From NCBI GenBank assembly GCA_035542415.1, contig DATKLM010000116.1, positions 12,129 to 36,128 on the forward strand: 24,000 nt of DNA. The letters are read 5' to 3'. The notes under the pieces were generated by a model that had not been told where the DNA came from, ran no database searches, and worked only from the letters and a program-made list of their open reading frames with translations. This DNA comes from Spirochaetia bacterium (lineage in GTDB: Bacteria > Spirochaetota > Spirochaetia > SZUA-6 > Fen-1364). Position 1 is the stretch's first letter. Every line of letters starts with the position of its first letter. Shown here one piece after another: positions 1 to 17,149 of the stretch. Made by a program: the position numbers and the translations under genes.

Positions 1-3000
1 CGAGCAGCTCGTCCCGCTGCGTGGTGAACGTCTCCCGCACGGTACCGATGGACGCCTCGGCTTCGCTGGCAAGCCGCGAAATCTTTTCCGCCGTGGCCAC
101 CTCCGTCTCCGACAACTGCTGACGCGCCCTGCCTTCCCAGGCAACCACCTCCCCCCGGGAAGCATCCAGGAGCTCGGTGAGCTCCTTCGTTCCGGACTCC
201 AGTCCCGCGGCGAGGTCCTTGAGCCGGCCTTCGATCTCCCGGTGCATCCGGCGCGTGCCTGCATCCAGATTGTCCTTGACGGCGGCGATTTCCTTTTCCA
301 CGGAGAGGGAGGATTCGCGGCGCGTCTTCTCCACGTCGGCCCGCAGAGTCTCGGCCATGGTCTCCACGGCGTGCTCGGAGGAGGCCAGCCGGATCTTCAG
401 ATCTCCTTCGAAAGCCCCGACCTTCTCTTCCAGGTCCGCCTGCCACGCCGTGAACTTCTCCACCATGGCCGTGGATCGCTGCCGCAGGTCCGCGAAGAAC
501 TCGTCTTCAAAGACCGTCAGCCTCTTCTCCACGTCCTGGTACGCCCGTGTCTTCAGATCCTCTAGGCCGGACTGCACTTCAGAGAGCCCGGCGTGCAGCT
601 GCTCCCGGGCATTCGCCGCGGCAGCCACTTCCGCCTGCCAGCCGCTGACGAGGTTCGCGGCGATTCCCTTCATCTCCGACCGGGCACCGGCGGCCATCTT
701 CTCCATGCTTTCCGACAGGGACGCGCGCAGCGCGTCAACGTCATGGGAGGATTCCTCCAGGCCCTTGATCCGGTAGTCCACGTCTCCCTGGTAGTCCGCA
801 AGGCGAAGCTCGATGGTTTCCACGCTCTTCGCGAAAGCGGCCTCGTTGGCCCGGATGCGGGCCGCGAGCCGGGAGAACACCTCGTCTTCCAGCGTTTCAC
901 CGCGCTGCGCCGCCCGGGTCAGCTTCTCCTTGAGGTCCGCTTCGAAAGCCTCCCCGCCCTTCGCGGCCCGGGCGAGCTTTCCGTTCAGCTCGGCGTCGAA
1001 TGCCTCGCCGAGCTGGCCGGCCTGCGCGAGCTTTTCGTTCAGCTCCGATTCCAGGGTCTTGCCGCGCTCGGCGGCCCGGGAAAGCCTCTCATTCAGATCC
1101 GCTTCGAACGCCTCCCCGCGCTCGGATGCCCGGGAGAGCCTCTCCTCAAGATCCTCTTCGAAGGCGTTGGCGCGCTCGGACGCCTTGGACAGCCTTCCGT
1201 TCAGGTCCGCCTCGAGCGCCTCGCCGCTGCCCGACACCCGGGAGATCCTCGCGTTCAGGTCTGCTTCGAGAGCGTTGGCCCGCTCCGCGGCTTTGGAAAT
1301 CCGCGCGTTGAGATCCGCTTCCAGTGCATCCCCGCTGCCGGCTGAACGTGAGATCCTGGCCTTCAGGTCGGCGTCCAGCTCCTCCACGCGGCCCGCAGCC
1401 TGGGACAGCTTTCCGTCCAGGTCCGCCTCGAAGCCATGTGCGCGCTGCACCGCCCCCAACAACTTCTCATTCAGGTCCGCTTCAAAGCCCTTGGCGCGCT
1501 CGGCTGCCTGCGAATACTTCCCGTTGAGATCTGCTTCGAAGCTCACGGCCCGTTCCGCGGCCTTGGCGAGCTTCCCGTTCAGGTCCGCTTCAAAGCCGGA
1601 TGCCTTCTCCACGGCCTTTGCAAGCTTTCCGTTGAGATACGCTTCATATCCCTTCGCCCGCTCGATGGCCTGGGCGAGCTTGCTGCCAAGATCAGCCTCG
1701 AATGCCTTGCTCCGTTCGGACGCTTTGGCCGTCGCGCCCTCGAGCTCGGCGTCGATGCCCTGTGCCCGCTCGGCGGCCTTGGACAGTCGTCCGTTGAGCT
1801 CCGACTCCAGCGCGCCGGCGCGCTCCATGGCCCTGGAAATCCTGCCGTTCAAGTCAGCTTCGAAACCGGACGTCTTCTCTACCGCTTTCCCTATCTTTCC
1901 GTTCAGGTCTGCCTCGAGGGCCTTTCCCCGCTCGGCTGCCTGCGCCAGCTTTCCATTCAGGTCCGCTTCGAAACCCGACGCCTTCTCCACCGTTTTGGCG
2001 AGCTTTCCGTTCAGGTCGGCTTCGAATCCCTTGCCGCGCTCGACCGCTCGCAGAAGCTTGGCGCCGAGATCCGCCTCGAACGCCTTCCCGCGCTCCGCGG
2101 CGCGCGCCAGCTTGCCGTCCAGCTCCGTTTCGAAGGCTTCGCCAAGCTGTCCCGCCTGGGTGAGTTTCTCCCTCAGCGCGGCCTCGATGGCTTCTCCATT
2201 CTCGGCGGCGCGGGAAAGCCTCTCATTGAGGTCCGTCTCAAAGGCGTCCGCCCGCTGAGCTGCCTGCTGGAACCTGTCGTCCAGGTCCGCATCGAGCTCT
2301 TTGCGCCGCTCCGCGGCGGCGTTGAGGCTGGAGACAAGCTCCGCCTCGAAAGCCTTGCCGCGCTCCGCCGCTGCGGCGAGCTTCACCGCAAGGTCCGCCT
2401 CGAACGTCTTCCCGTGCTCGGCGGCCTGGGACAGTCTCCGGGAGAGCTCCTCCTCCACCGCCTTGACGCGCTCGCCGGCCTTGGAGACCTTTCCGTTGAG
2501 ATTCGCTTCCAGGGCTTCGAGTGACTTCGACAGATAGGCGGCACGCTCCTTCTCCGCCTGCTCTTCACGGGCCTCCAGGCGCGCGATGTAGGCGGAGAAG
2601 TCCTTGAGCTTCTTCTCCGACGCGGCAACGCTCGCTGCGAGCGCACCCATCTTCGCCTCGACGGCGCCGACGAGTTCCTTCCGCACGCCCTCCATGGCCT
2701 GGCGGGCCCGCGCTGTCAGGCCGGCCTCCACCTCGGGGGCGCGCTTCTCAGCCTTTTCCAGGCGGGCCATCGTTTCACCGATCTTCCGCCCCACGGCGTC
2801 GGCCAAGTCGGACTCCTCTCGGAGCCTCCGAAGCGCCTGGTCCACGCGGCCGGACTGCGAGGCGAGCAGCGAAAGGCCGCGCTCGGAGTCCGCGATCCTC
2901 TTCTGAATCGCTTCCACCTCGGCTGACCTCTCGAGGAGAGCCCCCTCTGTCTGGCGCATGCGGGCTGCCATCTCCCGCCCGACCTTGAGGCTTTCCTGCA

Positions 3001-3190
3001 GTTCCTGCGCGAGGCTGCGAAGCTCGCCGGTGCGCTGTTCGACGAAGTTGGCGATGTTCTCGCTGATCTTGTCGCTGAATCTCTTCAGCTTTTCCAGTGA
3101 TCTGTTGTTTCTGTCGAGTGCTCGGAAGATGGCCAGGATTAGAAGGACAGCAACAAACGTGATCAAATTACCGATAGAGAAAATCGGCAT
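1..3190 (-). CDS. Membrane-anchored, repeat-rich alpha-helical (coiled-coil-like) protein; 3'-partial, at least 1063 aa, runs off window start
   Basis: Not in the supplied ORF track because there is no stop inside the window. Own minus-strand translation: ATG at 3190-3188 with GGGAGGGGGG 4 nt upstream, giving MPIFSIGNLITFVAVLLILAIFRALDRNNRSLEKLKRF... The frame stays open to position 2. I checked the start region, the whole 839-2512 repeat block, and 1-181 (...TELLDASRGEVVAWEGRARQQLSETEVATAEKISRLASEAEASIGTVRETFTTQRDELL). Composition is A/E/L/K/R-rich like a real protein, whereas the plus-strand ORFs over the same DNA are S/A/R-rich shadows. Confidence 0.85.
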   Translation of the reverse strand, partial: MPIFSIGNLITFVAVLLILAIFRALDRNNRSLEKLKRFSDKISENIANFVEQRTGELRSLAQELQESLKVGREMAARMRQTEGALLERSAEVEAIQKRIADSERGLSLLASQSGRVDQALRRLREESDLADAVGRKIGETMARLEKAEKRAPEVEAGLTARARQAMEGVRKELVGAVEAKMGALAASVAASEKKLKDFSAYIARLEAREEQAEKERAAYLSKSLEALEANLNGKVSKAGERVKAVEEELSRRLSQAAEHGKTFEADLAVKLAAAAERGKAFEAELVSSLNAAAERRKELDADLDDRFQQAAQRADAFETDLNERLSRAAENGEAIEAALREKLTQAGQLGEAFETELDGKLARAAERGKAFEADLGAKLLRAVERGKGFEADLNGKLAKTVEKASGFEADLNGKLAQAAERGKALEADLNGKIGKAVEKTSGFEADLNGRISRAMERAGALESELNGRLSKAAERAQGIDAELEGATAKASERSKAFEADLGSKLAQAIERAKGYEAYLNGKLAKAVEKASGFEADLNGKLAKAAERAVSFEADLNGKYSQAAERAKGFEADLNEKLLGAVQRAHGFEADLDGKLSQAAGRVEELDADLKARISRSAGSGDALEADLNARISKAAERANALEADLNARISRVSGSGEALEADLNGRLSKASERANAFEEDLEERLSRASERGEAFEADLNERLSRAAERGKTLESELNEKLAQAGQLGEAFDAELNGKLARAAKGGEAFEADLKEKLTRAAQRGETLEDEVFSRLAARIRANEAAFAKSVETIELRLADYQGDVDYRIKGLEESSHDVDALRASLSESMEKMAAGARSEMKGIAANLVSGWQAEVAAAANAREQLHAGLSEVQSGLEDLKTRAYQDVEKRLTVFEDEFFADLRQRSTAMVEKFTAWQADLEEKVGAFEGDLKIRLASSEHAVETMAETLRADVEKTRRESSLSVEKEIAAVKDNLDAGTRRMHREIEGRLKDLAAGLESGTKELTELLDASRGEVVAWEGRARQQLSETEVATAEKISRLASEAEASIGTVRETFTTQRDELL
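839..2512 (-). repeat. 31 tandem in-frame 54-bp repeats encoding 18-residue units, consensus about FEADLNGKLAKAAERGKA
   Basis: 1674 bp = 31 x 54 exactly. Units read off the minus strand include LEANLNGKVSKAGERVKA / VEEELSRRLSQAAEHGKT / FEADLAVKLAAAAERGKA / ... / FEADLKEKLTRAAQRGET / LEDEVFSRLAARIRANEA. Leu is at unit position 5 in 30 of 31 units. No insertion or deletion breaks the register. The DNA motif ttcaggtccgcttcgaa recurs at 54/108-bp spacing. Confidence 0.9.
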
Positions 3191-3217
3191 TTGTCCCCCC
3201 TCCCAGGAGTTTCCTAG

Positions 3218-3246
3218 ATAATAGACCTATCCCGGAGCGCTGTCAA
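3218..3246 (-). promoter_or_regulatory. Sigma70-type promoter for the repeat-protein gene: TTGACA, 17 nt, TATTAT
   Basis: Minus strand reads cgTTGACAgcgctccgggataggtcTATTATctaggaaactcctGGGAGGggggacaaATG. The -35 is at 3246-3241 and contains the TGA stop of the upstream gene. The -10 is at 3223-3218. The spacer is exactly 17 nt. The predicted 5'UTR is about 20 nt and carries the SD. Confidence 0.6.
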
Positions 3247-4649
3247 CGAGGTTCTGGGAGGAAAAAAGTGCCGTTCGAATCGACGCGGACGAGATTCACG
3301 TATTCATCGGGATAGCGAGAGGCGAGAGAGGCAGCGCTCGTCTCCTTGTTTCTTTCCATGACGACGAGACGGAAGTCCCCGTTCGCGTCGAACCACGGAA
3401 AGAGAACGACCACGTGATGGTGCCGGCGCAGGAGAGGACTCGAGCCGGCGGGAGCACCTTTCGCGCGGGCGTTCACGGAGCCCAGGTAGAAGGTCCCCGC
3501 CTGCTGGCGGGCTTCGAAGTACAGGAGGGCGCGCAGAGAGCCCACGGGATAGCCGACGTCACGCAGCCAGGGAATGCGGTCGGAGTCGCGGACGTCCAGC
3601 GCATCCGGCCCGGGCATGACTCCCGAACGCTCGCGCTGCAGAGCGCGGCCGAGCCCGCGGGACCAGTCCAGCCCGAAGTACGGGTCCTGCTCCTCCTCGT
3701 AGCGCGCGCTCCACGCCGTTCCCCTCTGGTCGGAGTCCCGGGATCTGAGCTCGGATATGTCGGTGAGGCTTCCGGTGAGCGGCGCGTAGAAGCCGTCGAT
3801 GATCCACTTGGCGAAGCCGGAGCAGTTGAATCCGCCCCGGCCGGCCGGCGCCCGTTCGCCGGTGGCGATGAACACGAGCCTGCCGGCAGCGTCCATCGCG
3901 CCATCGTCCATGTCGCGCAGTTGATGAAGCCGGGAGCGCACCGCGTCCACGATGGCGGCAATCCGCGCGTCGCCGGGTCCCTGCTCGGGAGAAAGGACGA
4001 GGCGCCAGTCCACCGAGGTGCGGCTCAGGTCGACGATCCGGGAGAAGGGCGCGGTCAAAAGCGTCTCGAAACGGGCAGGAAGGAGAACGTGCGTCTGGAA
4101 CTCCAGGCCGTACAGGACGACGTCCATGACGGTGCGGTCGGCCTGGGGGAAGATCCGCAGAAAGCAGCCGGGATCGTTCTGCACGAAGACTTTCGCCTGG
4201 ATGAAGCTTCCGTCGGCAAGGCTCCGCTTGATGATGAAGGTGCCGGCGTTGTCCAGGCGGAACCCCCGCGCGGAACGGTTGGAGAACACGAGGAACGCGG
4301 CCCCTTCCTGGAGATCCGCGCGGAAGGAGACCTCCGCCGTGGATTCCGTCTGGCGGATGACCCGCGGCGGCATGGCGGCAGCGTCCCGGACGGGAGCAAA
4401 GATCGTGTCCCGCATCAGGGAGCGCGCTTCCCAGTTCTCCGGAAGGGAACCCAGGGCAGCGCCATCCCCGAGCGGCGTTCGGGCGGACAGGGAAGGGGCT
4501 CCAACAAGAGCGAGCAGAGAAGAAAGCAGCAGCGCGGCGGGGCCTAGACAGGGACGTCGAGGGCGAGCCTTGCCAGGGACGGCGTACCCGCCGAACGGGT
4601 ACTCCCGTACGGCCGAAAGCGAGCCCCTAGACAAGGAGAGTGTCTTCAT
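3243..4649 (-). CDS. Secreted or periplasmic protein of unknown function (468 aa) with a possible NlpC/P60-like Cys...His motif pair
   Basis: Track ORF 3243-4919, trimmed to ATG 4649 (MKTLSLS...) because the upstream 270 nt lie inside the preceding gene in another frame. Signal-peptide-like segment: RRPCLGPAALLLSSLLALVGAPSLSA|RTP. GGFNCSGFAKWIIDGF (Cys276, TGC at 3824-3822) resembles the G-x-DCSGF nucleophile motif. RRHHHVVVLFPWFDANGD (His410-412) resembles the His strand. Confidence 0.7.
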   Translation of the reverse strand: MKTLSLSRGSLSAVREYPFGGYAVPGKARPRRPCLGPAALLLSSLLALVGAPSLSARTPLGDGAALGSLPENWEARSLMRDTIFAPVRDAAAMPPRVIRQTESTAEVSFRADLQEGAAFLVFSNRSARGFRLDNAGTFIIKRSLADGSFIQAKVFVQNDPGCFLRIFPQADRTVMDVVLYGLEFQTHVLLPARFETLLTAPFSRIVDLSRTSVDWRLVLSPEQGPGDARIAAIVDAVRSRLHQLRDMDDGAMDAAGRLVFIATGERAPAGRGGFNCSGFAKWIIDGFYAPLTGSLTDISELRSRDSDQRGTAWSARYEEEQDPYFGLDWSRGLGRALQRERSGVMPGPDALDVRDSDRIPWLRDVGYPVGSLRALLYFEARQQAGTFYLGSVNARAKGAPAGSSPLLRRHHHVVVLFPWFDANGDFRLVVMERNKETSAASLASRYPDEYVNLVRVDSNGTFFLPEPR

Positions 4650-6447
4650 CAATGCGGTCCCTGAGGCCTCCCCGTTTCGCGGCCAGGATTTCACGGTCCG
4701 CGGCGAACAGGGCGCTGATCTCGATGGCGTGAATGGACCTTCCGTCCTGATCCCGGGGAACCGTGACTCCGCAGGAGGAAAGCCACCGGGCCGCCTTTTC
4801 GACCTGGCCGCGGATGCACGTCTCCACGGAATCGAGGCCTTCGCGGTTCTTGAGCGGCGCGAACTCTTCCGCCCGGTCGGTTTCGAAAAAGAGAGCCTTC
4901 CGGGCAAGCGGGATGGCATCGAAAATGAACTTCTCCATCTTCACGGCTTCTTCTTCTACAGTGTCGGCGCCCGCGGATGCCGGTCTGAGCGCCTTCACCT
5001 TCTTGCGCGCGATATGGTAGGGAAGAGCGAGGCCGGGCCGTGAAAGGAAGGCGGCGTTCAGCGCATGAATGGCGATGGACGCCTGGGAATAGAGGAGCCT
5101 GCCGTCCTCTCCGCAGGCGCGCATGAGCCGTTCGTCGAGGTCGGAGTATTCGATGACCGCGGGCCTCCCGGCACGGGTCACGATGACTCCCAGCTTCTCC
5201 TCCGGATACGCCTTTGCAACGACCTTGGAAGAGATCTCGGAGCCTTCCCTGCGGTGGAAACCCAGGAACACGGGGTCCGGCACGCGGACGAGGGGATTGT
5301 CCACCTGGAAATACGACAGCTCCTCGATCCCCCGCTCGTGGATATCCGCCAGAGCGCCGGACTGCACCAGGGCGTCGATGATTCCGCCATGGCCGTCCGG
5401 ATTCAGGAGAAGCCCGCCGTCCGGTCCCATCACAAGGCCGCCGTCCGTCGAGAGAGAAGGAAGCGTCCCCTGGGAAAAGAAGATCACCGTGTCGCTCCCC
5501 AGCCCGAACCAGCGCTCGCCGCGGAAGTACTCCTCCGTGGCGGAACGGTTCAGCAGGCTGGTCATGATGAGCCAGGGAATCTGCGCGCCGTACCACCGCC
5601 GGGCGGCGAGAATCTTTTCCGCGTGGAGGGCGAAGAGGCTGAGCCGGCGGATCGGGCTGATGGGGTACATCCCCTTCGGTCCGTCGAATCCCAGCCGGGA
5701 TCCCTGGCCTCCCGCCACGGTGAGAACGGCCGTGCGGCCGCGACGGATCAGCTCTTCTCCGATGTCGCGCGCCTCGCGGTCCGCGGCGCTTGCGGACAGC
5801 GGCACGTAGGGCGCAGGCTCGGGGACATCCGGCTCGCGGGTCTCCCCCTCGGGCGCATCGCCAAGCCGGGCACGAAGCTGCTTGAGCCTCTCCACGTCGA
5901 GCGACGCGAGATCCTCCAGGAGCCTGCGCTTCATGGCCTTCGGACGGGAGTCCCAGTACAAGAACAGATGCTCGTGACCCAGAGCTGAGAACTTGTCCCG
6001 GATCTCTTTTTCCATCATGAGGTCTCCCAGCAATGCCTCCGCCTGCGTATCTGGCGTCTGACCGTCCGCCGCCTGTCCGTCTTCGGTGCGCCCTTCTTCC
6101 GTGCGCTCTTCGTCCGCGTGGCCGCCCAGCGGGCGCCGCATACGGCGAACCGTCATGAGGGCGTCGATGAGATCGGAGCGCACCTGGGCGAACCGGGCGC
6201 GCAGGTCCGGCTCCCCCGCTCCCAACTCCTCCCACATGCGCCGCTTCGCCCCTTCTATCGTGAACTTCCGCTCGTAGAGCAGGTGACGGAACCTCATGAG
6301 CAGCCTGATCTCGCTCGCCGTGTATTCTCGCCTGCCGGAGAGACCCTTGCGGGGCGAGAGCAGCGGAAGCTCGCTCTCCCAGTACCGGATGATGTACGGC
6401 TTGACCCCGAGGAAACGCGCCACTTCCCCGATGCTCCACGATCTCAT
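4627..6447 (-). CDS. MerR-type HTH domain fused to a eukaryote-type UDP-N-acetylhexosamine / UDP-sugar pyrophosphorylase (UDPGP/UAP family), 606 aa
   Basis: ATG at 6447. N-terminus WSIGEVARFLGVKPYIIRYWESELPLLSPRKGLSGRREYTASEIRLLMRFRHLLYERKFTIEGAKRRM is a MerR HTH plus wing. An acidic low-complexity linker follows. UAP/UDPGP signatures: GHEHLFLYWD, LTVAGGQGSRLGFDGPKGMYPI, NPDGHGG, YFQVDNPL, MEKFIFDA. Confidence 0.85.
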   Translation of the reverse strand: MRSWSIGEVARFLGVKPYIIRYWESELPLLSPRKGLSGRREYTASEIRLLMRFRHLLYERKFTIEGAKRRMWEELGAGEPDLRARFAQVRSDLIDALMTVRRMRRPLGGHADEERTEEGRTEDGQAADGQTPDTQAEALLGDLMMEKEIRDKFSALGHEHLFLYWDSRPKAMKRRLLEDLASLDVERLKQLRARLGDAPEGETREPDVPEPAPYVPLSASAADREARDIGEELIRRGRTAVLTVAGGQGSRLGFDGPKGMYPISPIRRLSLFALHAEKILAARRWYGAQIPWLIMTSLLNRSATEEYFRGERWFGLGSDTVIFFSQGTLPSLSTDGGLVMGPDGGLLLNPDGHGGIIDALVQSGALADIHERGIEELSYFQVDNPLVRVPDPVFLGFHRREGSEISSKVVAKAYPEEKLGVIVTRAGRPAVIEYSDLDERLMRACGEDGRLLYSQASIAIHALNAAFLSRPGLALPYHIARKKVKALRPASAGADTVEEEAVKMEKFIFDAIPLARKALFFETDRAEEFAPLKNREGLDSVETCIRGQVEKAARWLSSCGVTVPRDQDGRSIHAIEISALFAADREILAAKRGGLRDRIDEDTLLV

Positions 6448-9670: not shown

Positions 9671-10456
9671 ATGGCCGCAAAACGTTCCTCACGCGCGAAA
9701 TCCTCCAACCTCCGGAGCCGGGGAATCGGCTGCCTGTTCTGGATCTGCCTCCTGGCCATCATCGTCGCGGTGGGGTACGTCGCGCGCGCGCAGATCGCGG
9801 ATACTTTTTCCCGCCTCTTCGGAGGAAAGCAGCAAACCGGCGCCGTGCAGCAGCAGCCGCACGTCACCACCGCTCCCCTTCCCCCGGGAGAGACGCCGGC
9901 GCGGGACAGCGCGCGGGATGCGGCCCCCCCGGCCGGGGCTCCGACATCCGGCATGCCGGCCGCGCCGGGAGCGCCGGAGGGGAAAACCGTCGTACAGACG
10001 CCGCCGGCACAGCCCCCGGAGAAGCCAGCGCTCAGAAAGACGCGCCTGTTCTTCATCTCCGTTGACCCGAACGGAAAGATCCTCATGAAGGGGGTCATCC
10101 GCCCCATTCCGCAGAGCGACTCTCCGCTTCATGACGCGCTGGAGACGCTGCTCAAGGGTCCCACGTCCCAGGAAATCAACCTCGGCCTCATGACGATGGT
10201 CCCCTCCGGAACGATTCTTCGCGGCGTGACGGTGAAGGGAGACACGGCGTTCGTGGACTTCAGCGAGAGCTTCCGGTTCAACTCCCTGGGGATCGAGGGG
10301 ATGACGGCGCAGCTGCGCCAGGTGGTGTACGCGGCCACGGATTTCCCGACCGTGAAGAAGGTTCAGATTCTCATCGAAGGAAAGAAAGTCGTGTACCTCG
10401 GCACCGAGGGCGTCCGCATCGACCAGCCCCTGGCCCGGTCATCCTTCGCGAACTAG
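9671..10456 (+). CDS. Membrane-anchored GerMN (Germane) domain protein
   Basis: ATG 9671 preceded by GGGAAGAGAG. N-terminal TM GIGCLFWICLLAIIVAVGYV, then a Pro/Ala-rich linker. The GerMN-type pattern is LFFISVDPNGKILMKGVIRPIPQSDSPLHDALETLLKGPTSQEINLGLMTMVPSGTILRGVTVKGDTAFVDFSESF... This is the only credible plus-strand gene in the window. Confidence 0.8.
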   Translation: MAAKRSSRAKSSNLRSRGIGCLFWICLLAIIVAVGYVARAQIADTFSRLFGGKQQTGAVQQQPHVTTAPLPPGETPARDSARDAAPPAGAPTSGMPAAPGAPEGKTVVQTPPAQPPEKPALRKTRLFFISVDPNGKILMKGVIRPIPQSDSPLHDALETLLKGPTSQEINLGLMTMVPSGTILRGVTVKGDTAFVDFSESFRFNSLGIEGMTAQLRQVVYAATDFPTVKKVQILIEGKKVVYLGTEGVRIDQPLARSSFAN

Positions 10457-12044: not shown

Positions 12045-13574
12045 TCAACGGGCGTACTCCACGACGCGCATCTCCCGGATGATCGTGACCTTGATCCTGC
12101 CCGGATACTTCAGCTCCGTCTCGATCCGCTTGGCGATGCCCTTGGCGAGCTCCTTGGCCTGCTCGTCACTGATCTTCTCATTGTTGACGAGGATGCGAAG
12201 CTCGCGGCCCGCCTGGATGGCGTAGGCCTTGTCGACCCCTTCGAAGTCCTCCGCGATGGCCTCGAGGTTCTCCAGGCGCTTGAGATAGTTGTCCAGGGTC
12301 TCCTTGCGCGCGCCGGGCCGGGAGGCGGAGATGGCGTCCGCGATCTGCACGACGACCGCCTCCACGCTCTCGGGCTCCACGTCTCCGTGGTGCGCGCCGA
12401 TGGCGTTGATGACCCGCGCGTCCTCACCGAGCTTGCGCGCGAGCTCCATGCCCACCTCGATGTGGTTGCCGTCCCCGTCCGTTTCTACGCCTTTCCCGAT
12501 GTCGTGGAGAAGGGCCGCCCGCTTGGCCAGGTCCACGTTCGCCCCGATCTCCGCGGCGAGCATGCCGGCGATGAGCGCCACCTCCTTCGAATGGGCGAGG
12601 ACGTTCTGCCCGTAGCTCGTGCGGTAATGGAGACGGCCAAGGGTCCGGATGGCCTCGGGGCTCATCGTGTGGATTCCCACCTCGAAGAGCACCCGCTCGC
12701 CTTCCTCGTAAATGGTCTGGGCGATCTCCTTGCCGACCTTCTGGACGATCTCCTCGATCCGCGCGGGGTGGATGCGCCCGTCGGAGATGAGGCGGCTCAG
12801 CGCCGTCTTGGCGATCTCCCGGCGGATGGGATCGAAGCAGGAGATGACGACCGCCTCGGGCGTGTCGTCGATGATGATGTCCACGCCGGTCAGTGTCTCC
12901 AGCGTGCGGATGTTGCGGCCCTCGCGGCCGATGATGCGGCCTTTCATCTCGTCATTCGGCAGGCTCACCGTGGTGACGGTGACCTCCGAGGCGACGTCCG
13001 TGGCAAGACGCTGGATCGTCGTAACGAGGATGTCGCGCGCCTTGCGGTCCGCGCTGAGCTTCGCCTCCTGCTCGATGACGTTGATCGTGACCTGGGCGTC
13101 GTGTCGGGCCTCGTTCTCGAGGCTCTGTATAAGCAGCTTCTTGGCCTCCGCCCTGGTAAGGCCCGAGATTCTTTCCAGCTCTGCGGCTATCCGCTCGCTT
13201 TCCTGCTGCAGTGCCGCTTCCTGTTCCGCGGCTCCCCTCTCCCGGTTGCTGATTGCCCTCTCTTGTTTTTCAAGAGACTCAATGCGCTTTTCTAGGTTTT
13301 CTTCCTTCTGAAGGAGGCGTCTTTCGGTGCGCTGGAGCTCGATTCGGCGCTCCCGCGACTCTTTTTCCAGCGTGTTCCGCTCCCGCAACAGCTGGTCCTT
13401 GCTCTCAAGTATCGCCTCTTTCTTCTTTGCTTCCGCTTCTCTTAAGGCCTCCGTGACGATTCTCGTCGCCCTTTGCTCTGCCGATGAAAGCTGAAAACGT
13501 GCGTAAAGCCATCGAATTAGCCAACCTAGAAATAAACCGGCGAGAGGAAGAATGAAGTACGCCAGAGTGCTCAT
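12045..13574 (-). CDS. rny: Ribonuclease Y (N-terminal membrane anchor, coiled coil, KH and HD domains)
   Basis: [24 protein letters not shown] anchor, K/E-rich coiled coil, KH motif [26 protein letters not shown], and HD motif HSKEVA...LLHDIGK. I place the start at ATG 13574 because GGAGGAAG sits 4 nt upstream. The track GTG at 13586 is itself part of that SD. Confidence 0.95.
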
Positions 13575-13606
13575 ATCTTCCTCCACTCGCGTGCTATGTA
13601 AAAGAC

Positions 13607-13635
13607 AGCTTAAATCACATGAGCCGGTTTGTCAA
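13607..13635 (-). promoter_or_regulatory. Sigma70-type promoter for rny-ymdB-tlyA: TTGACA, 17 nt, TAAGCT
   Basis: Minus strand reads cccTTGACAaaccggctcatgtgattTAAGCTgtcttttacatagcacgcgaGTGGAGGAAGATATG. It lies in the only clearly AT-rich intergenic gap of the window (13575-13699). Confidence 0.55.
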
Positions 13636-13699
13636 GGGAAGCCTTTTGGCGTTGATCTGGGATATCACGAAGAGTTTCGTATCATATTGATGTAAAAGG

Positions 13700-16600
13700 C
13701 TAGAGAACGATGAGTCTTTTCAGGATTGTTGAAATCACGATATCGCTGTCAGAGGCAAATGCCAGAAGAGCGTAGGCATCCTGGTTTCGGAATGTCACCG
13801 GCAGCATGACGATCCGCTTCATGTACCGCAGGTCCTCGAAGTCGAACAAGGCCCTCCAGTACTGGATCTCCGCCGGGTTCCGATTGACCGCTACTGCCTT
13901 CCGCTGGGACAGGAGGAGCTTGAACATCCGCCCGTCGACCAGGAAGCGCAGGGCATGACCGCTCTTTTCGCTGAGACCGACGGTCAGGTCGACAAGGAAG
14001 CCCTCCGGCTTTTTCAGAAGCAGGCAGGCGCTGACCGCCGACACTCGGCGGGATACCTCGACAAGGGACTTCATCTGCGACGAGTGCGTGAACGAACGTG
14101 GATAGAGAGACAGGAACTCGTCATAGTCGATGCCGTTTCTCTTGAGGTGCATGGAGGCGGTCTTCTCACGGTCTGCGGAAAGGACCTCCTCCCGCTCCTC
14201 GTCCTGCCTGTCTCCAACCTCTTCGGAAAGATCGATCGTCTGCTCTTCCCGGATCAGGTCCCCGATTCCGGCGAACAGGTCCTCATCCCGGGGTTCGCGC
14301 GCGTCCTCAGCCGCGTTCTTCACGACCTCCCGCGCAATCTCCAGAAGGCCGCCCTGGCGCGCGGCGCTCCGGGCGGCCGACACGTCGCGCGGCGGCTGCG
14401 CCGGGCTGGCGTACAGCTCGTCCTTGATCCTGAAGACGCCGTCCTCCATGACGATGGCGGACTTGGACTCGTCAACGATTTTCTGGAGCTCGGGGATGGA
14501 CCACGCCTTGATGGTTCCCCCGGCGATCAGGCCCGGGATCTCGTCCTCCGCGTCCTCCACGTCGTACCCGGGTTCCGTGCCGCCCTCGGGGATCTCTTCG
14601 AGCGCTTCCAGCTCTTCCACCTCCGCCTCGGCGACGGTCTCTTCCCGGGCAACGCTGGAAGCAGGGGGCTTGACCGCCGTGGCGATCGCTTCCGCCTCTT
14701 CTTCAGCCGCCCCGGCGGGACTTTCCCTGCCTTCGAAATAGCCGGGAGGGGCGTCGTCCGTGCCGAACGTGAGCAGCACGCCGCGCTCGTCCAGGACCCT
14801 CTCTTCCATCTCCTCCTCATCCGCCGGAGGAAGGAGCTCCAGGCCCTCCTCGTACGGGAGCGGCGGCAGGGGCTGGATCTCCTGGAGCGACTCGAGCTCT
14901 TCCAGGGACTCCTCGGGAGAATCGATCCGGGTGTCGTAAGATTGCAGGTCGCGAATAATGGCGGCCGGCTCGGGGGCCTGGCGGATGCCTGACCGCGCCT
15001 CGGGGAACGGGGTCACTGCCGTGAGAGGCGGGGCCTGCTCCGCGAGCTCGTCTTCCCCCACGGACTCGAGCTCTCCGATCTCCTCCGCCGGGGCGGGCTG
15101 CGCGGGCCCCGGAGCGCCGGGCGCTTCGGCGAAACCCGCCTCTTCCAGAGAGACCTCTTCGAGATCTGCCTCCTGCGCTGCCGCGGCTGCGTCGGTCACC
15201 TCGGAGGGAACCTCCAGCGTGCCGGCCTCGTCGAGGGCAGGCGCCTCAACGATCTGGGACTCATCCACGAGCTCGACTTCTTCAACAAATTCCGCTGAAA
15301 GCGGCTCCGCGGCTGCTTCCCTCGGGGCGGCAGCGGTTTCGTCAGACACCGCGAGAGCCTCAACAGCCTCGGCCTCTTCAACAGCCTCCGCTTCTTCGGC
15401 TTCGGCGGCTGGCGCTTCTTCGACAGCCTCCGCTTCTTCGGCTTCCGCCTCTTCTGCCTCCGGGACTGGTGCCTCTTCGGCAGCCTCGGCTTCCTCTACC
15501 GCTTCAGCTTCCTCGATGCCCTCAGCTTCCTCGACGCCTTCAGCCTCTTCAACAGCTTCCGCTTCTTCGACAGGAGCCTCTTCGACGGCCTCGGCCTCCT
15601 CAGCCGGCGCTTCTTCGACGGCCTCAGCTTCCTCTACCGCTTCGGCTTCCTCGACGCCCTCAGCCTCTTCAACAGCTTCCGCTTCTTCAAGCTCCTCGGC
15701 TTCGGCGGCAGGGGCTTCTTCCACCGGCTCGGCTTCTTCTACGCCCTCCGCTTCTCCGACTTCCTCGACAGCTTCCGCCTCCGCGGGAGCCTCCGCGGAG
15801 GCAATGGGCGCAGCCTCTGCCTTCAAGGCGCGCGCCGCCGGCTTCTGCGCCGGCCCGGCGATGCTGGCGTTCTGAAGCGCCGTCTTGATCAGGGACTCCA
15901 GCCGGGAGATGTCCAGCGCCCCGATGGCAGGCGCCTGGGGCGCCTGGGAGCGGCGCGAGATGAGGTCGATGATCTCGTTCCAGCTCTTGGCCATGTACTC
16001 GTCGATGACAGGCTTCTGCTTGCGGGACACCCTCCCGATCCCCCGCTGGATCTGCCACGTGATCTCTTCACGGCGGGACTCAAGCTCCCGCGACCACCTG
16101 CTCCAGTCCGCTCCGCCCGGCCCTTCGATCAGCTCCGTCATGAGCTGGATCTGGAAGCGCTTCACTCTCTGCCGAAGGACGTCCAGCGGATCGGAGCGGA
16201 GGTTGATAAGGAGGTAGACGATGAGGAAGACGGTGAGGAAGAAGGTGGCAAGCAGAAGTCCCTTCATCAGGTCCGTCATCTCGAAAACGGAGCTGGAAAC
16301 GAGGAGGCTCGCCACGCCTCCCGGATGCAGCCGGACGGCGAACGCCAGGAACGCCTGAGGCTTTCCTCCCTCTCCCGAAAGGGTCAAAGGGCTGCTGAAG
16401 GACGGAACGTCGGGATGGTCCCGCCACATCTGCACCAGGGCGGACGACACGGCATTCATGTCGCCGGCGCTGAAGTTCAGGAGGACGCCGTCGCTCTTGA
16501 TGAGAGAGACACTGGTAACGGCGATCTGCGGCATGAGCTGGAGGTCTGCCAGGAGGTCGAGGGCGCCCAGGTAGAAAACCGCCGTTCCGCGGTACTGCTG

Positions 16601-17149
16601 GGCGTTGCCGGCCCCGGTGGGCTGATACACGGGAGCGCTGTAGATCAGTCTCCCCTGGTCGCCGTCAATGAACAGCCGCGGATCGTCTCCCGGGCCCAGG
16701 AGCACCGTGGACACCGGGACGGAAGGCTCCACCTCCGTGTAGTTGCGGTAGGCGAACTTTTCGGGAGTCAGGTTCTTCGCGTCCGCGGCAATCGAGCTGA
16801 AAACGATCTTCTGGCCGTCGGCGGTGATGACGCGCACTCCCGCCACGTGAAGGGTGCCCAGGGCATCCGCCCACTGGCGCATGACCGCCGGGGTCAGGGT
16901 GGGCTCGAAGGAAGCTACGGCGAAGTCCTTCTTGGCCACCGCGGCGAACCGCTCGAGATTGGCGGAGTGGAACTTCTCGATCCGTCCGCCGAGGATCCCG
17001 ACCTGGGTGACGTAGCCCTGCTGGACACGGGGGAGGAAGAAGCTGGCCTGGAGGACGTTGAAGAGACCCGAGAATGCGAGGACGGCGAATCCCGCGAACA
17101 GGAGAACGGAAACGAGCAGACTGATCGCTACTTTGAGACCCTGCCGCAT
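13700..17149 (-). CDS. Large two-TM protein: Cache-like extracytoplasmic domain, long acidic disordered cytoplasmic region with hexapeptide repeats, GAF-like C-terminal domain; function unknown
   Basis: ATG 17149. TM1 is VAISLLVSVLLFAGFAVLAFSGLF. The ~260-aa outer domain has a Cache-like pattern (RLIYSAPVY...YRGTAVFYLGALDLLADL). TM2 is LLLATFFLTVFLIVYLLINL. An E/A/P/V-rich region of roughly 550 aa follows. The C-terminal ~150 aa has a GAF-like pattern (…RIVMLPVTFRNQDAYALLAFAS…). Domain names rest on pattern recognition only. Confidence 0.8.
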   Translation of the reverse strand: MRQGLKVAISLLVSVLLFAGFAVLAFSGLFNVLQASFFLPRVQQGYVTQVGILGGRIEKFHSANLERFAAVAKKDFAVASFEPTLTPAVMRQWADALGTLHVAGVRVITADGQKIVFSSIAADAKNLTPEKFAYRNYTEVEPSVPVSTVLLGPGDDPRLFIDGDQGRLIYSAPVYQPTGAGNAQQYRGTAVFYLGALDLLADLQLMPQIAVTSVSLIKSDGVLLNFSAGDMNAVSSALVQMWRDHPDVPSFSSPLTLSGEGGKPQAFLAFAVRLHPGGVASLLVSSSVFEMTDLMKGLLLATFFLTVFLIVYLLINLRSDPLDVLRQRVKRFQIQLMTELIEGPGGADWSRWSRELESRREEITWQIQRGIGRVSRKQKPVIDEYMAKSWNEIIDLISRRSQAPQAPAIGALDISRLESLIKTALQNASIAGPAQKPAARALKAEAAPIASAEAPAEAEAVEEVGEAEGVEEAEPVEEAPAAEAEELEEAEAVEEAEGVEEAEAVEEAEAVEEAPAEEAEAVEEAPVEEAEAVEEAEGVEEAEGIEEAEAVEEAEAAEEAPVPEAEEAEAEEAEAVEEAPAAEAEEAEAVEEAEAVEALAVSDETAAAPREAAAEPLSAEFVEEVELVDESQIVEAPALDEAGTLEVPSEVTDAAAAAQEADLEEVSLEEAGFAEAPGAPGPAQPAPAEEIGELESVGEDELAEQAPPLTAVTPFPEARSGIRQAPEPAAIIRDLQSYDTRIDSPEESLEELESLQEIQPLPPLPYEEGLELLPPADEEEMEERVLDERGVLLTFGTDDAPPGYFEGRESPAGAAEEEAEAIATAVKPPASSVAREETVAEAEVEELEALEEIPEGGTEPGYDVEDAEDEIPGLIAGGTIKAWSIPELQKIVDESKSAIVMEDGVFRIKDELYASPAQPPRDVSAARSAARQGGLLEIAREVVKNAAEDAREPRDEDLFAGIGDLIREEQTIDLSEEVGDRQDEEREEVLSADREKTASMHLKRNGIDYDEFLSLYPRSFTHSSQMKSLVEVSRRVSAVSACLLLKKPEGFLVDLTVGLSEKSGHALRFLVDGRMFKLLLSQRKAVAVNRNPAEIQYWRALFDFEDLRYMKRIVMLPVTFRNQDAYALLAFASDSDIVISTILKRLIVL
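15350..15796 (-). repeat. About 24 tandem 18-bp units encoding an (E-E-A-E-A/G/P-V)-type polyacidic tract, with higher-order ~120-140-bp duplications
   Basis: The protein reads AEAVEEVGEAEGVEEAEPVEEAPAAEAEELEEAEAVEEAEGVEEAEAVEEAEAVEEAPAEEAEAVEEAPVEEAEAVEEAEGVEEAEGIEEAEAVEEAEAAEE... In DNA, cttcctctaccgcttc[a/g]gcttcctcga ... cagcctcttcaacagcttccgcttcttc occurs twice (about 15488-15567 and 15625-15686). Confidence 0.85.

Follow-up and report, generated by a model that had tools for sequence, protein, structure and literature searches.

In EzrA and RNase Y, the membrane attachment of a long, helical, cytoplasmic body is provided by a single N-terminal transmembrane (TM) helix. Very long helical rods are known from Scy and FilP, which are non-heptad coiled-coil cytoskeletal proteins of actinobacteria. 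Their hendecad rods typically possess cores of small residues (PMC9858780). FipA of gamma-proteobacteria is a protein of 163 amino acids (aa), in which five periplasmic residues are followed by a TM helix, a cytoplasmic coil and a DUF2802 domain, and which binds the flagellum-placing GTPase FlhF via the conserved residues G110 and L129, recruits it and helps to place the polar flagellum; its N-out/C-in layout is predicted in silico and from topology mapping, and its TM anchoring was shown experimentally (PMC11620751). In the current study, we describe a gene at the left edge of a 24,000-nucleotide (nt) stretch of DNA from a Spirochaetia bacterium (contig DATKLM010000116.1, positions 12,129 to 36,128; hereafter the window), which compares in part with each of these systems. 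Judged by its sequence, the encoded protein is a member of the SpiroCoCo family, and it probably functions as a membrane-anchored cytoplasmic tether or spacer that presents a protein-binding head.

The gene is located on the minus strand, where the frame that begins with the ATG at 3190 runs from position 3190 to position 2 through 1,063 codons without a stop and leaves the window still open; in the same stretch (positions 1–3190), each of the remaining five frames contains 7 to 27 stops. The chance of an open frame of 1,063 codons arising from the local base composition is approximately 2e-13, and the GC fractions at the first, second and third codon positions (GC1/2/3 of 0.70/0.44/0.81) match those of recognisable genes in this window of 65% GC. 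The product is rich in A, E, L, K and R, as had been noted previously (A18, E14, L11, R9, G7 and K7%). The ATG at 3190–3188 is the single possible start codon, since an in-frame TAG is located 12 codons upstream and no ATG, GTG or TTG lies between the two. A Shine-Dalgarno sequence (GGGAGGGGGG, 3195–3204, minus strand), read directly in the sequence, ends 4 nt before the ATG, and a near-consensus sigma-70-type promoter-like site (TTGACA-17 nt-TATTAT; 3218–3246, minus strand; 11 of 12 matches) is situated further upstream, one such site being found as against 0.1 expected in shuffled sequences. The -35 hexamer of this site overlaps the stop codon of the upstream open reading frame (ORF) 3243–4919.

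These data substantiate the original prediction, made from the letters of the window, of an edge-truncated minus-strand gene of at least 1,063 aa that starts with an ATG behind a Shine-Dalgarno sequence. The same prediction had pointed out that the frame is absent from the list of ORFs for the window and that antisense shadows appear instead, which is explained by the rule used for that list: ORFs that run off the end of the sequence are not listed, hence the SpiroCoCo frame is missing and only plus-strand ORFs are displayed over 177–2906 (177–776, 593–1345, 813–2258, 1436–2524 and 2604–2906). As expected of antisense shadows, these ORFs display frame-shifted codon-GC patterns and encode S/A/R- or L/G/R-rich products. 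A listing restricted to complete ORFs conceals a gene of 4.8 kb here and offers its shadows in its place. Long spurious ORFs do occur in high-GC DNA and five plus-strand ORFs of 100–481 aa overlap the frame, so that it might be argued that the frame is a chance opening or that one of the plus-strand ORFs is the true gene. This argument, to which we attach negligible probability, is countered by the chance estimate given above, by codon-position GC typical of coding sequence, by strong matches to hidden Markov models, by hundreds of homologues with conserved ends, by conserved synteny and by the exclusively synonymous differences to a second contig. The non-gene reading is effectively refuted, and the minus-strand frame is a genuine protein-coding gene.

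The second contig, Ga0335070_10061467 (4,077 bp; L007), was retrieved in a metagenome scan and encodes a product with 100% identity to the last 279 residues of the window protein. Its first 947 bases correspond to window positions 947–1 but for two substitutions, both of which are synonymous (GCG/GCA at Ala751 and CAG/CAA at Gln762). In L007 the frame proceeds for a further 523 codons to a stop at L007 positions 2516–2518, and the leftward extension that had been proposed as a check thereby located the end of the gene. The protein consequently comprises 1,586 aa, of which codons 1–1063 occupy window positions 1–3190 (minus strand) and the remainder lies beyond the left window edge. A previous estimate of approximately 1,746 aa (683 residues missing), derived from an alignment of three orthologues, is superseded by this extension.

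Family membership was assessed using NCBIfam models. Residues 9–222 (window 2525–3166, minus strand) matched NF047514 (SpiroCoCo_N) and NF047516 (LA_3659 family) with 141 bits (E 4.1e-41), well beyond the respective cutoffs of 75 and 36 bits, and the continuation of the protein in L007 matched NF047515 (SpiroCoCo_C) with 301.9 bits (cutoff 125 bits). On sequence grounds, the window protein is a member of this previously named family, each of whose testable features was found in it. It shares with other members the N-terminal TM helix and 'R.LDRNNRSLEK.KR' motif, the C-terminal head '...HQGWSV.EIAR.T.LSRGEVELILEL' and the synteny of orthologues in metagenome-assembled genomes (MAGs) of Spirochaetia. 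A HMMER search with residues 1–245 retrieved at least 366 cluster representatives, 238 of them at E <= 1e-10, and in nearly all 366 the alignment begins within the first few residues, typically at residue 2–3. Since members from 377 aa up to 2,718 aa pass both end-domain models, the sequences describe a family whose ends are conserved and whose middle is freely variable; at 1,586 aa, the window protein falls in the upper part of this length range. At the short end, 'mini' members of 377–393 aa (P0253, at L091 6001–7179, P0250 and P0257) have virtually no rod between the TM/N-terminal motif and the C-terminal head; the P0253 gene is found immediately upstream of grpE-dnaK-dnaJ, in a 7.8-Mb contig, with MotA/ExbB-ExbD-type genes beside it.

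The closest genomes are those of uncultured Spirochaetia MAGs from peat and soil (48–65% identity over the N-terminus). Six genome loci with relatives, all from Spirochaetia/Spirochaetota MAGs, have a gene order in common, namely PtsI, Der, a MerR-UDPGP fusion, an unknown gene, SpiroCoCo, DUF362-Fer4, PGI and grpE-dnaK-dnaJ. These loci point to a spirochaete, presumably an uncultured one from soil or peat, as the source of the window. Automated annotation names relatives 'chromosome segregation ATPase' or 'SbcCD ATPase subunit', and a cluster look-up returned only 'hypothetical' or ATPase-type names. Models of SMC, Rad50 and SbcC scored 22–36 bits, in coiled-coil regions only and not over an ABC-type ATPase head, as against cutoffs of 567–729 bits, and the SMC/SbcCD ATPase names are for this reason judged, from the sequence scores, to be coiled-coil artefacts. 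No literature on SpiroCoCo or LA_3659 was found, and a broader literature search returned nothing relevant; when a published member or one from a cultured organism was sought, the N-domain profile yielded only nine metagenome fragments.

The N-terminus of the protein contains its sole hydrophobic segment, as residues 3–21 have a mean Kyte-Doolittle hydropathy of 2.63 (19-residue span) and the next best segment reaches 1.31. This segment is assigned to a single TM helix of aa 3–22 (IFSIGNLITFVAVLLILAIF; window 3125–3184, minus strand), which is found family-wide. It is preceded by two uncharged residues without any Lys or Arg and followed by six Lys/Arg in the next 15 residues, in accordance with the TM helix and Arg/Lys cluster described in the original prediction. 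The latter residues form a basic juxtamembrane motif (aa 23–37, RALDRNNRSLEKLKR; window 3080–3124, minus strand) which is nearly invariant in the family, as seen in columns R23, D26, R27, N29, R30, S31, L32, E33, K34 and K36. Across the family, the N-terminal design comprises 1–6 uncharged residues, the TM helix and then 'YRQLDRNNRSLEKVKRY'. According to the positive-inside rule, the basic-flanked side of a TM helix is cytoplasmic. The protein is predicted to insert N-out/C-in, with its body in the cytoplasm at the inner membrane, because six Lys/Arg follow the helix and none precedes it; the recurrence of this design in every member inspected, and the corresponding layout of FipA, lend support to this orientation and to the cytoplasmic helical body that had been proposed for the gene.

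An N-in/C-out signal anchor would instead place the rod in the periplasm, for instance beside the periplasmic flagella. Spirochaetes are known for elaborate periplasmic structures, and the hydrophobic segment is N-terminal like that of signal anchors; yet the charge distribution described above, with its family-wide occurrence, runs counter to such an orientation, neither a Cys or lipobox nor a cleavage motif is found in the 20-residue hydrophobic region, export of an acidic body of some 1,560 residues would be required, and the body in the related layout of FipA is cytoplasmic. A periplasmic rod therefore appears highly improbable.

In possessing an N-terminal TM anchor and a long, in this case predicted, helical body, the protein is similar to EzrA and RNase Y, to which its topology had been likened. 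The comparison stands as an analogy of anchoring, and not as membership of either family: the window protein yielded no match to the EzrA domain PF06160 (spectrin-like repeats), and no RNase_Y_N, KH or HD domain was detected in it. The genuine RNase Y of the window is encoded by a separate gene, 9 kb away, at 12045–13586 (TIGR03319, 726 bits).

Between the N-terminal domain and the distal rod, aa 227–784 (window 839–2512, minus strand) consist of 31 tandem repeats of 18 residues without a single indel (consensus FEADLNGKLAKAAERGKA; by position F-E-A-D-L-N-G-K-L-A-K-A-A-E-R-G-K-A), in which variation is lowest at L5, E2, A12, D4 and K8. Neither this array nor the family membership formed part of the original prediction. 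Mean identity between the units is 45% for the protein and 59% for the DNA, and 43% when only third codon positions are counted; different codons encode 52% of the residues that are identical between units, and the best unit pair is 80% identical at the DNA level. The array is, on this sequence evidence, old and maintained by selection on the protein rather than an assembly artefact, since the DNA has diverged, the codons differ and no indel has entered any of the 31 units. Recent slippage or an artefact of assembly was considered as its origin and was ruled out by the same DNA identities (best pair 80%, mean 59%).

The array was found in none of the 187 homologues and 86 loci examined and in this respect the window protein differs from all other members inspected; its lag-18 autocorrelation is 0.31, as against approximately 0.10 in syntenic orthologues. 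At the corresponding position, the orthologues contain the unit once or twice (family consensus 'AFEAxLxGxLxxAAxRGETLEDEVF'), on account of which the array is read from the alignments as the amplification of a pre-existing unit. Other members contain internal repeats of their own, with periods of 40/80, 51/102, 58/116 and 98 residues. Seven of them (P0144, P0005, P0006, P0185, P0027, P0034 and P0087) display periods of 51/102, 40/80 or 58/116 residues, which lie near 3.6 residues per turn (51/14, 40/11 and 58/16). The sequences suggest that near-straight helical rods have been built repeatedly and independently in SpiroCoCo members.

On a helical wheel of 100 degrees per residue, F1, A12, L5, G16 and L9 of the repeat unit fall within 0–80 degrees and form a single straight seam, bordered by K8 and R15 along one edge and by E2 along the other. 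Eighteen residues correspond to five helical turns, i.e. 3.60 residues per turn (18/5), which is within 0.03 of the value of 3.63 for an undistorted helix; from this small difference, a bundle with next to no supercoiling is predicted, the case being the mirror image of hendecads. Like Scy and FilP, the window protein combines a rod of more than 1,000 residues with tandem non-heptad repeats, approximately 3.6 residues per turn, small core residues and a rod lengthened by lineage-specific duplication. Unlike these actinobacterial proteins, which belong to a different phylum and are hendecad-based, it is built on an 18-residue unit (3.60 residues per turn), is TM-anchored and is devoid of a DivIVA-like N-terminal motif. 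An array in exact register at 59% DNA identity represents a clean natural example of a helical repeat with 3.60 residues per turn, and as such may be of interest to coiled-coil structural biologists and protein designers. A beta-structure, to which a hydrophobicity peak at 160–180 degrees, alongside that at 100 degrees, might point, was rejected on three counts: the peaks are harmonics of a period of 18 residues, beta-branched residues are few in a composition of A/E/L/K/R, and the helix predicted by AlphaFold runs continuously across the N-G positions. A 36-residue helix-turn-helix (HTH) solenoid was likewise set aside as the default, N6 being present in 17 and G7 in 14 of the 31 units and lags of 18 and 36 autocorrelating equally.

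The array is followed by a non-repetitive conserved segment of the rod (aa 785–1063; window 2–838, minus strand) with the motifs DYQGDVDY and FEDEFFADLR, which is 46–61% identical to orthologues, contains nearly invariant columns and has 101 metagenome relatives. In the entire protein of 1,586 aa, prolines occur only at positions 2, 152, 1544, 1545 and 1584. An AlphaFold model of residues 1–1063 is helical from 6 to 1062, with breaks only at 616–619 and 814–817, and passes through the N-G positions of the repeats. Approximately 1,500 helical residues would measure some 220 nm when fully extended, which implies that the rod must run along the membrane or fold back.

Database searches with the rod returned little: Pfam matches were confined to sub-threshold coiled-coil noise (Apolipoprotein, PF01442, 52.2 as against 90 bits), a fold search of the Protein Data Bank (PDB) with the window model gave zero matches, and a PDB sequence search with the rod retrieved only apolipophorin-III (E approximately 0.006). 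Exchangeable apolipoproteins of these types also consist of tandem amphipathic helical repeats rich in A, E, K, R and L; in contrast, the window array consists of 18-mers without proline punctuation, its scores lie below threshold, and its seam is narrow (approximately 80 degrees), which fits helix-helix packing better than lipid binding. A helix lying amphipathically on the membrane surface is unlikely for the same reason, i.e. a seam only about 80 degrees wide with acidic residues flanking it.

The C-terminal end of the protein was characterised in the L007 continuation and in a homologue that is 74% identical. The model of the latter (predicted local distance difference test score, pLDDT, of 83.8) comprises a helix of 270 residues, a disordered linker and three short helices that constitute the head. 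The continuation matched DUF6115 (PF19610) with 29.0 bits, above the gathering threshold of 27, and DUF2802 (PF10975) with 20.4 bits (E 5.7e-4), below the gathering threshold of 33.5. Among 50 SpiroCoCo C-termini, 46 matched DUF6115 and 27 matched DUF2802 at E <= 1e-3 (best 1.8e-7); these recurrent matches indicate a domain related to DUF2802 rather than membership of it. The head further contains the pattern G-x15-E-x2-L (HQGWSV...RGEVEL), with the spacing of G110, E126 and L129 of FipA, in which the Gly is present in 47, the Glu in 50 and the Leu in 49 of the 50 sequences; the correspondence was drawn from spacing and Pfam profile coordinates, and not from a direct alignment with FipA.

The third helix of the head, RGEVELILEL, is acidic and hydrophobic and contains three invariant or nearly invariant Glu residues, because of which the sequence makes a protein the most likely ligand of the head in preference to DNA. 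Faint Pfam matches to HTH_23 and Sigma70_r4_2, and a Foldseek search of the PDB in which the top local matches were all HTH domains (approximately 1 Å over about 40 residues), would allow a different function, whereby the head binds DNA and the protein anchors or spaces the nucleoid at the inner membrane. The best structural matches are indeed to DNA-binding folds, i.e. resolvase, Pax, DeoR, RcsB/LuxR and sigma region 4. However, none of them is significant (E of 0.1 or higher), the helix at the recognition position carries the three invariant or nearly invariant Glu residues and no basic or polar DNA-contacting residues, and the related DUF2802 domain binds a protein. A membrane-to-DNA tether is thus regarded as improbable.

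Under the tether or spacer function that we favour, the rod would be attached to the inner membrane on its cytoplasmic face and would pair with further chains to give a coiled coil that is non-heptad and nearly straight. The conserved ends would perform the specific work, namely membrane attachment and the binding of a partner by the head, and the rod would set the reach, with tandem duplications adjusting its length in each lineage separately. The lineage of the window would have arrived at 31 copies by amplifying a unit that relatives possess once or twice. SpiroCoCo proteins are widespread in spirochaetes, often exceed 1,000 residues and are strongly conserved at both ends, and the present analysis supplies a putative architecture for them that comprises an N-out anchor, a variable rod and an HTH-shaped, DUF6115/DUF2802-like head.

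The features of the rod could alternatively reflect a self-assembling scaffold in which the rod would do the functional work by forming polymers or bundles along the membrane's inner face, with the head as a regulatory appendage and with roles in cell shape, stiffness, division or pole organisation such as those of Scy/FilP-type or EzrA-type proteins. Great length, the lack of prolines and a non-heptad pattern with small seam residues liken the rod to those of FilP and Scy; at approximately 220 nm it would fit a thin spirochaete only along the membrane or folded back, and the strict 18-residue register over 31 units suggests lateral pairing in register. Yet the mini forms of 377–393 aa retain both ends with almost no rod at the same genomic position, the ends, but not the rod, are conserved in sequence between lineages, and searches of the window protein detected no domain of the DivIVA, EzrA or intermediate-filament-like type. 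A scaffold of this type appears unlikely, though it is by no means far-fetched, and the tether or spacer remains the function we consider probable.

As regards the partner of such a tether, FlhF is advanced as the leading candidate, by analogy, given that FipA's DUF2802 domain is the only characterised sequence relative of the head. The predicted order of parts is that of FipA, beginning with a short outer segment and continuing with a single TM helix, a coil in the cytoplasm and a small C-terminal domain, and the similarity of the C-terminal domain is weak but recurrent; the two proteins differ in size (1,586 as against 163 aa) and in the coil, which is approximately 50 times longer here, and the topology of the window protein is a predicted one. 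Extending this analogy, the SpiroCoCo head might be the spirochaetal counterpart of the domain with which FipA binds FlhF, and members of the family membrane-anchored adaptors of tunable length by which FlhF, and in consequence the subpolar periplasmic flagellar motors, would be positioned. This proposal is speculative and we consider it distinctly unlikely; it provides a testable hypothesis regarding the partner. If it were true, the rod would serve as a molecular ruler, repeat amplification would set its length anew in every lineage, and in the present case 31 exact 18-residue (five-turn) units would form an unsupercoiled coiled coil.

Several observations weigh against the interpretation developed here. 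The C-terminal third of the protein was read from the near-identical contig L007, outside the window, and the copy number of the array derives from one assembly, that of the window, since L007 reaches no further than its two final units. Hydrophobicity along the array has a stronger spectral signal at 160–180 degrees than at 100 degrees, and the AlphaFold model of the window part is a monomer of moderate confidence (pLDDT 67.5, predicted template modelling score 0.25), although a moderate pLDDT is to be expected when a rod is modelled as a monomer. The topology, the oligomeric state and the pairing into coiled coils are predicted, and the literature search turned up no experiment on any SpiroCoCo member. 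With respect to the head, its DUF2802 score lies below the Pfam threshold and its Foldseek matches in the PDB are all non-significant. The authors of the FipA study report zero FipA homologues in spirochaetes (PMC11620751). Finally, flagellar, division and chromosome-partition genes are absent from the window and from five related neighbourhoods, in none of which is the SpiroCoCo gene adjacent to an flhA-flhF-flhG-fliA operon; its neighbours are DUF362-Fer4, PGI and grpE-dnaK-dnaJ downstream and MerR-UDPGP upstream, and no conserved functional partner was found in this genomic context beyond housekeeping synteny.

With regard to these neighbours, a gene with DUF362 and 4Fe-4S ferredoxin domains (L007 2524–3684; 14288–15457 and 10969–12114 in the related loci L001 and L087, respectively) starts a few nucleotides after the SpiroCoCo stop, the distance being 6 nt in L007. 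Co-transcription of the two genes is suggested by this arrangement, because the adjacency is conserved even in a member that is only 28% identical. Directly upstream of the SpiroCoCo gene, ORF 3243–4919 (minus strand) encodes up to 558 aa without a family match, and its true start is probably located later, since its first 90 or so residues are R/S/P-rich; the same position in related loci is occupied by a gene of 409–438 aa, also without a match (L001 8473–9789, L087 1124–2353). It is adjoined by a fusion of an N-terminal MerR-type HTH and UDPGP (UDP-glucose pyrophosphorylase) at 4627–6447 (minus strand), which recurs at L001 6282–8495 and L087 1–1089 and is conserved beside the SpiroCoCo locus in several Spirochaetia.

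Elsewhere in the window, in which no tRNA or Rfam elements were found, a GerM-like ('Germane', PF10646) protein at 9671–10456 is encoded by the only clear plus-strand gene, surrounded by a minus-strand housekeeping run that includes TlyA, YmdB, RNase Y, PtsI and Der. An ORF of 1,149 aa at 13700–17149 (minus strand), situated between RNase Y and rpoA, has coding-type GC1/2/3 values of 0.73/0.43/0.78 and no match in Pfam or NCBIfam; its product contains an N-terminal hydrophobic segment and a second near aa 300, approximately 200 aa of acidic low-complexity sequence (EAEAVEEAEGVEE...) and then a non-repetitive C-terminal region. The GC content dips locally to 0.55 at 13001–14000, compared to approximately 0.65 elsewhere, over an interval that takes in the RNase Y gene at its 5' end, the gap between the genes and this ORF at its 3' end.

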